64,000 bases of DNA from Heterodontus francisci (taxonomy: Eukaryota), in assembly GCF_036365525.1 (NCBI RefSeq), contig NC_090412.1:16901923-16965922 (forward strand). Reading direction: 5' to 3'. Positions within the stretch are counted from its first letter, which is position 1. Each line of letters starts with the position of its first letter. The position numbers and the translations under genes are program-made. The notes below the pieces were generated by a model, which did no database searches, had not been told where the DNA came from, and was given only the letters and a program-made list of their open reading frames with translations. Positions 63,001 to 63,527 of this stretch are shown here, piece by piece.

Positions 63001-63173
63001 GTGAAAATACAGTTTTCAGTCCATGCACAGCAATATCATTCATTAAAACATTCTATAATGACTAACCCTTCCAATCTCTAACACAATTTAGATTGTAGGT
63101 TTGGACACCATAAGGATTTTATTAAAGACAGAGATGACAGGTGGACTTTGGTAAAGAATTATGAAGTTTTATA

Positions 63174-63372
63174 TAATAAAAACAAGAAATGCTGGAACCA
63201 CTCAGCAGGTCTGGCAGCATCTGTGGAAAGAGAAGCAGAGTTAACGTTTCGGGTCACTGACCTGAAACGTTAACTCTGCTTCTCTTTCCACAGATGCTGC
63301 CAGACCTGCTGAGTGGTTCCAGCATTTCTTGTTTTTATGTCAGATTTCCAGCATCCGCAGTATTTTTCTTTT
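63174..63372. mobile_element. Fold-back (palindromic) Penelope-like insertion
   Basis: 81-bp arms 63176-63256 and 63258-63338 with one mismatch; 16-bp TSD attatgaagttttata (63158-63173, 63373-63388). Confidence 0.9.
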
Positions 63373-63383
63373 ATTATGAAGTT

Positions 63384-63527
63384 TTATAGTTTTGCATTTT
63401 TGGAAGTGAAAGGTAAATAATGATCATTCAAGCGATCGGCTTCCCTCCATCCTGATTGCAAGGCACCATGGGTGGTAGAATAAAATGTCCGGTGAGTAGC
63501 TTCACCAGCGAAAAGCACCTGCAAAGG
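63384..63527 (-). CDS. PAOX: PAOX last exon ([47 protein letters not shown]); gene continues beyond the window
   Basis: Flavin amine oxidase FAGEAT...STTHGAL.SG.REA.RL motif; PTS1 AKL; ctgttag acceptor; PAOX-MTG1-SPRN synteny. Confidence 0.92.

Follow-up and report, generated by a model that had tools for sequence, protein, structure and literature searches.

A 199-bp insertion next to the stop codon of PAOX is the stub of a Penelope-like element (PLE) in which two truncated copies stand head-to-head and meet in a palindrome that aligns with helix II of the hammerhead ribozyme of sister copies. We see roughly even chances that the stub was made from two separately primed cDNAs, one per target strand, which were joined at helix II in one insertion event. 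The layout of such insertions and self-priming at palindromic junctions have already been published, and the locus is mostly ordinary. Recognition of the junction palindrome as helix II, which rests on one copy, appears to be without precedent in the open-access literature; in the accessible parts of that literature, including bioRxiv 10.64898/2026.07.22.740005, no statement was found that connects helix II of the hammerhead with inverted junctions. The stub is a clean record of an unsolved step, namely the origin of head-to-head Penelope-like copies in which one end is long and the other short. The window analyzed is a stretch of 64,000 nt of NC_090412.1 (Heterodontus francisci), and all coordinates are those of the window on its forward strand.

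The insertion and its element family

The insertion and the adjacent exon consist of the following features.

63158..63173, no strand: left copy of the target site duplication (TSD), 16 bp (repeat comparison within the window)
63174..63256, minus strand: left arm, inverted, with 2 additional nt; the outer end matches the short, tail-less 3' end of the sister copies ending at 34375 and ~40078 (alignment)
63251..63263, no strand: apex, a 13-nt palindrome corresponding to hammerhead helix II, common to both arms, with the only arm mismatch inside (alignment with sister copies)
63258..63338, plus strand: right arm in element sense, with the 3' strand of helix II, GAAA, and the palindromic helix III (ACGU), up to the tail boundary (alignment)
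63339/40..63372, plus strand: one-sided Penelope tail of 33–34 nt, with the same terminal base as the sister copy at 19116 (blast, alignment)
63373..63388, no strand: right copy of the TSD, 16 bp, 14/16 A/T, containing the PAOX stop (repeat comparison within the window)
63384..63527, minus strand: last coding exon of PAOX, ending in AKL and the TAA stop at 63386–63384 (translation, PDB and Pfam matches, contig exit at the acceptor)

The insert (63174–63372, 199 bp) is framed by TSD copies that are identical at 16/16 positions. Its two arms (63176–63256 and 63258–63338) agree at 80 of 81 positions, the exception being G63251/A63263, and are separated by a loop of a single nucleotide, C63257. 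The inverted arm is shorter than the right arm by 33–34 nt, which corresponds to the tail. The inverted repeat, its loop and the insert length had been described in an earlier, sequence-only reading of this DNA and were all confirmed by recomputation. That reading also placed the PAOX TAA within the TSD and the start of the insert 11 nt into the 3'UTR; the stop does lie inside the right TSD copy, and 11 TSD bases separate it from the insert. Its assignment of the apex to helix II of the sister ribozyme motif, with the upstream CUGANGA half replaced by the inverted arm, agrees with our alignment, in which 63251–63263 falls on helix II of the sisters and the CUGANGA half is missing from the insertion. 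Both outer junctions are present in contigs of two species. No contig among those listed spans the apex; therefore, the apex rests on the assembly of the window.

The translated exon identifies the gene. The best of its 29 PDB matches is peroxisomal N1-acetyl-spermine/spermidine oxidase (E 2.3e-13), with spermine oxidase ranking behind (2e-9), and its Pfam match is Amino_oxidase. We take the C-terminal AKL to be a PTS1-type signal. RNA-like contigs exit the stretch at the acceptor AG at 63529–63528.

A blast search with the insert found three sister copies in the window.

19116..19474, minus strand: partial tandem with tail, the start of the element ORF (19397), a hammerhead region with core U4 changed, and a 12-bp TSD (blast, alignment, motif scan)
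34270..34375, plus strand: copy that starts just before CUGAUGA, has a minimal type I hammerhead fold and ends at the short 3' end (blast, alignment, fold)
~39980..40078, plus strand: third copy, with GAAA broken, ending at the short 3' end (blast, alignment)

The third copy was missing from the earlier listing, and no convincing TSD was found for it. The CUGANGA core is present at 34278 and 39982 and altered at 19245; a fully intact hammerhead motif occurs in 0/3 sisters. A GGT variant is shared by both arms of the insertion and is found in none of the three sisters. In run X1, 44,027 contigs were placed on the stretch, nearly all of them on the element. The element family is very abundant.

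The sister copies have further features. The copy at 34270 is flanked by a 13-bp direct repeat (34056–68 and 34376–88), and the ~200 bp of unique sequence between the left repeat and the hammerhead start (34069–34270) may be captured host DNA, or the repeat may be due to chance. In the copy at 19116–19474, an acceptor-like CAG directly precedes the ~22 initial codons of the element ORF that are retained. Motifs at the loose ends of contigs fall into two variants of the family at the helix II base (63251–63263), a G-C type and an A-T type, possibly a compensatory change. Three other repeats were seen in the window: an older imperfect palindrome (24737–24910, 76.6% over 175 bp), which is MITE-like, has no relation to the Penelope family and occurs once in the window; a G-rich 22-bp satellite with two N gaps (2–3105); and a 47-bp unit in three tandem copies that are 98% identical (37448–37587).

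The Penelope origin proposed earlier is supported by the layout, the hammerhead-bearing sister copies, the tail, and the TSD. The stub itself has no ORF. The ORF start in the sister copy at 19116 matches the shark database protein P0001 at 21/22 amino acids, and the same region of P0001 matches P0037 (E 3.2e-4), which gives a transitive and weak link from the family to P0037. Longer homologs were sought with P0001, and none were found. P0037 (924 aa) was the one protein among the six scanned for which a Pfam family was found, namely RVT_1 (1.2e-9); its C-terminal GIY-YIG match (4.8e-4, 20.8 bits) lies under the cut-off of 22.6. This distant homolog carries a CX4CxxC linker, and a CX2-5CxxC linker between RT and EN is described as a Neptune clade motif in the available part of PMC8557442. 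The family may therefore be Neptune-like, although a linker in a distant homolog is weak evidence; our first guess, the Poseidon clade, was dropped on the same cysteine linker.

The Rfam search at the gathering score gave no matches in the window. Helix II, GAAA, and the palindromic helix III with its UH cut site are present as sequence in both arms, where they are paired into the long duplex. With CUGANGA lost and the rest locked in this duplex, the insertion is predicted to be unable to fold as a ribozyme.

A MITE or fold-back DNA transposon has terminal inverted repeats at both ends, and its copies move as a palindromic unit. This class was ruled out for the insertion, which has an unpaired tail at one end and no palindromic counterpart among the three sisters. 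Pattern scans for family copies gave none in viral contigs, none and then seven in metagenome contigs, and four in prokaryote genomes. These 11 metagenome and prokaryote loci were dropped as chance matches because only 21–26 nt match, at 52–68% GC.

Formation of the head-to-head stub

We consider a series of steps by which two cDNAs could have produced the stub. The AT-rich target would be opened by nicks staggered by 16 bp, as the TSD suggests. Priming would use the long, tail-bearing start on the bottom strand and the short one on the top strand; the two ends are seen in the product, and priming at them is presumed. Both cDNAs would be extended over the uncut ribozyme sequence as far as helix II or past it. 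Their self-complementary 13-nt ends would then anneal, any overhanging CUGANGA flaps would be trimmed, and the gap would be sealed. The stub would have been fixed before the split of the two sampled species, and it would now probably be a passenger hairpin in most PAOX mRNAs and a substrate of ADAR; no ribozyme would work there, and the AATAAA that the stub created would be little used.

Because both arms extend past the ribozyme cut site (63271/63272), copying of the uncut ribozyme sequence is evident in the product. The outer end of the left arm lies at most 2 nt from the 3' ends of two of the three sisters (34375 and ~40078), a point that the sequence-only reading had overlooked, and the right end is that of the sister copy at 19116. 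The inverted arm thus ends at the second, tail-less 3' end of the family; therefore, two primed cDNAs are favored over a single cDNA that snapped back on itself. The chance of such a coincidence at the left end is roughly 5/96 = 0.05 if arm lengths of 20–115 nt are taken as uniform. Loose ends of the X1 family contigs number 181 at 63175, 181 at 63372, and 242 at 63375; a fraction of the ends counted at 63175 may belong to contigs with a tail that aligned to the left arm (the consensus is partly tail-like; agreement 0.37). The energy prediction gave −14.9 kcal/mol for a dimer of cDNAs at helix II and −2.9 kcal/mol for the monomer hairpin.

Joints between contig parts were also counted. Nine of the 15 listed joints (133 in total) run from the left to the right arm with unequal offsets of 4–89 nt, as other head-to-head copies would give, which is a weak indication: the short sides measure 22–32 nt at 88% likeness, and joints of this kind carry a warning from the tool. 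The remaining six were not counted as head-to-head, since each could be a deletion, a tandem, or a change of strand inside a single arm. Symmetric fold-backs align to the reference without a joint and are therefore invisible in this count. One of the nine joints has a side in helix II, and three have one that lies 1 nt away from the cut site of the ribozyme. In X1, sets of 308, 257, and 63 contigs read through helix II into the usual upstream core. At most, helix II is one join point among several. The three joints near the cut site (63241; offset 16 versus 15) come from runs of both species and may mark cDNAs of self-cut RNA, a weak indication given their short sides.

The sequence-only reading explained the inversion by snap-back priming on helix II. 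Its choice of the join point stands: among the 185 nt of cDNA scanned, helix II offers the best terminal self-pairing (6 bp; the next unrelated site has 3 bp) and is therefore a plausible place for the join. The route itself has not been established. A tail-bearing cDNA that stopped or was trimmed at helix II would have folded back and been extended along itself, after which the new arm, once cut or captured at the tail boundary, would have become linked to the other end of the target. We regard this as a possible but somewhat doubtful course. In its favor, the apex is symmetric and occupies the best terminal stem of the cDNA. A loop base that is G on the tail-bearing cDNA strand and a base of template type at 63251 would both follow from snap-back of that strand, whereas two joined cDNAs would give each of them about half of the time. 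Self-priming has been proposed for the palindromic junctions of PLEs (PMC3846280, available part), and R2 proteins in cells produce snap-back cDNA before the 5' junction is formed (PMC11371274, available part). However, the monomer hairpin is weak, and an extra step is needed for an arm that ends exactly where the family has its short 3' end. An endonuclease cut at the tail boundary after snap-back, akin to the tail resolution suggested in the available part of PMC8557442, would give the same outer end. The arm mismatch was rejected as proof of snap-back. It lies at a CpG site and could be a CpG transition, and the position of 63263 is T in 2/3 sisters; therefore, a single mismatch cannot decide the route. 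Loose ends also reveal a family variant with an A-T closing pair at this position.

Formation from two primed cDNAs remains our preferred reading, and it rests on one copy. The arrangement could in principle also have come from two independent insertions, from a later deletion between inverted copies, or from a fold-back in the assembly. The abundance of the family and the missing apex-spanning contig leave some room for such origins. They are nevertheless very improbable: the whole unit lies between the copies of one 16-bp TSD, both arms carry the GGT variant that is foreign to the sisters, and contigs of two species contain both outer junctions in inverted orientation.

The palindromic helix II might double as a joining or priming signal at the DNA level, where cDNA ends pair after reverse transcription of uncut RNA. 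We consider this unlikely. If true, the ribozyme sequence itself would shape head-to-head Penelope insertion, the hammerheads of PLEs would have a second, non-catalytic role, and there would be a testable account of how inverted pLTRs form.

The hairpin and the PAOX transcript

The following features bear on the transcript.

60696..63383, minus strand: likely PAOX 3'UTR, ~2.7 kb (RNA-like contigs X5, X10, X9; signal context)
63370..63375, minus strand: AATAAA made by the junction of TSD and insert, 8 nt past the stop, with 17% U downstream

The insertion is likely older than the split of the two sampled species. The flanks of these species diverge by ~2% (36/1773). In organism B, flank contigs enter the left arm by 21–26 nt and the tail by 27–31 nt, only one junction meets the 31-letter bridging rule, and no contig shown crosses an empty site. 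Therefore, the insertion probably predates this ~2% split. One arm mismatch was observed against 1.64 expected from the flank divergence (P(<=1)=0.51); since this is the neutral expectation, the identity of the arms needs no selection.

The contig evidence on transcription comes from 4 of the 20 listed runs; X6–X8 (0.73–0.83 of words) and X11–X15 were left out. None of the runs was recorded as RNA; X5, X9, and X10 were taken as such because their intron cover is low (depth 3–16 versus 37–220 in the UTR) and their contigs break at the acceptor at 63529. A DNA run has flat depth across the same PAOX region. In all three RNA-like runs, contigs run 2.1–2.5 kb past the insertion at similar depth (X5, 60696–63197; X10, 60738–63199; X9, 61032–63194). 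Depths before and after the hairpin are 207.6 and 220 in X5, 38.5 and 36.8 in X10, and 61.9 and 86.8 in X9, each being one value per contig, which cannot rank parts of the gene. Family contigs swamp the locus, with a summed depth of 865,730 versus 220.

The junction does create an AATAAA 8 nt past the stop, as the sequence-only reading stated; the other TSD copy continues as AATTCT instead. A U/GU-rich downstream element is expected at a working poly(A) site. The U-rich element was sought behind the new signal (63375–63370) and is absent: the downstream sequence has 17% U and five GU/UG steps, as compared with 41% U and eight steps behind a candidate distal AATAAA (60753–60748, minus strand). 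The distal site has one upstream UGUA, and the X5 and X10 contigs end nearby. Without a U-rich downstream element or a drop in depth, early termination is unsupported, and the new AATAAA is probably little used. Against the suggestion that PAOX mRNA is cut short there, the RNA-like contigs, which cannot show transcript ends, give a weak hint in that they go 2.1–2.5 kb further at similar depth. The companion suggestion of a dsRNA-bearing PAOX mRNA fares better and is likely, on weak, contig-level evidence from the same runs. A GC- and CpG-rich, promoter-like stretch lies at 59000–59420, ~1.3 kb past the PAOX 3' end.

On the mRNA strand, the hairpin has a predicted energy of −160.5 kcal/mol (z −23), and none of 100 shuffled sequences was equally stable. 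Because this strand is devoid of the CUGANGA half, no ribozyme would form on PAOX mRNA. The PAOX mRNA likely carries the hairpin as an incidental passenger dsRNA in two related species.

The hairpin, as a substrate of ADAR, Staufen, or Dicer, or the new poly(A) signal could instead be an exapted switch under selection in PAOX. The hairpin lies 45 nt past the stop, is likely transcribed, and is common to two species; on the mRNA strand, its 81-bp duplex offers 45 adenosines. Heavy editing is reported for palindromic repeats in frog and for Penelope in lizard, and the brain of the elephant shark shows abundant hyper-editing (available part of PMC5625713). However, editing, if it occurs, would be the default fate of such repeats. 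The number of arm mismatches gives no sign of selection, the similar contig depths on both sides of the hairpin argue weakly against a switch, and so does the U-poor sequence behind the new AATAAA. We therefore hold such a switch to be very improbable; the regulatory role suggested by the sequence-only reading is unsupported, and the identity of the arms is compatible with neutral drift.

The locus adds another stub to those of a very abundant retroelement; in two species, it has likely brought a near-perfect 81-bp duplex into PAOX mRNA. A part in the regulation of polyamine catabolism would be of greater consequence, and nothing found points there. By analogy with the edited repeats of other vertebrates, A-to-I editing of the PAOX hairpin is plausible, and the stub would be a convenient fixed, transcribed test site for such editing in cartilaginous fish.

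Comparison with known systems

The comparisons below draw on the available parts of the cited articles. The insertion unit of EN+ Penelope-like elements consists of an inverted truncated pLTR, a palindromic overlap, a one-sided tail, and a TSD (PMC3846280, PMC8557442). The insertion at PAOX has this layout: an AT-rich TSD, head-to-head truncated pLTRs with a palindromic overlap, and a tail at one end. It closely resembles Pen2a_Av of Adineta vaga, in which the inverted pLTR overlaps the direct copy by 15 bp and is accompanied by a 31-bp tail and a TSD (PMC3846280). The overlap here is 13 nt, the one-sided tail is 33–34 nt, and the TSD is 16 bp, as compared with 9–10 in Pen2a_Av; tails of 30–40 bp are reported in PMC8557442. 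Unlike Pen2a_Av, the stub comprises only 199 bp and lacks an ORF, and its junction palindrome is recognizable as hammerhead helix II. The 2013 study read the junction palindromes as self-priming, and its accessible text makes no mention of hammerheads (PMC3846280).

The purified PLE protein of Poseidon_Ac cuts and extends both target strands in vitro, and reverse transcription starts at two sites that bound the tail, with uncut RNA as the template (PMC11167929). The insertion agrees with this in its two presumed starts around the tail, the presumed extension of both strands, the copying of uncut RNA, and the AT-rich target. The family here differs in that it looks Neptune-like by the linker of P0037. 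The available part of PMC11167929 gives no account of inverted junctions.

Metazoan PLEs carry minimal type I hammerheads (PMC4209133). The sister copy at 34270–34316 shares with them helix I, CUGAUGA, an extra nucleotide before helix II, GAAA, and a minimal helix III, whereas the insertion at PAOX lacks CUGANGA and is locked in a duplex. In the snap-back junctions of R2, antisense element sequence is joined to the upstream target, as it is here (PMC11371274). However, R2 has neither a second start site nor a tail, and the inverted arm at PAOX ends at a canonical end of the element.

The hairpin can finally be compared with the Harbinger repeats of Xenopus, which are palindromic ADAR substrates (PMC5625713). 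Although Harbinger is a DNA transposon and the hairpin here, a putative ADAR substrate, is of retroelement origin, both are self-folding repeats with a short loop inside a transcript.
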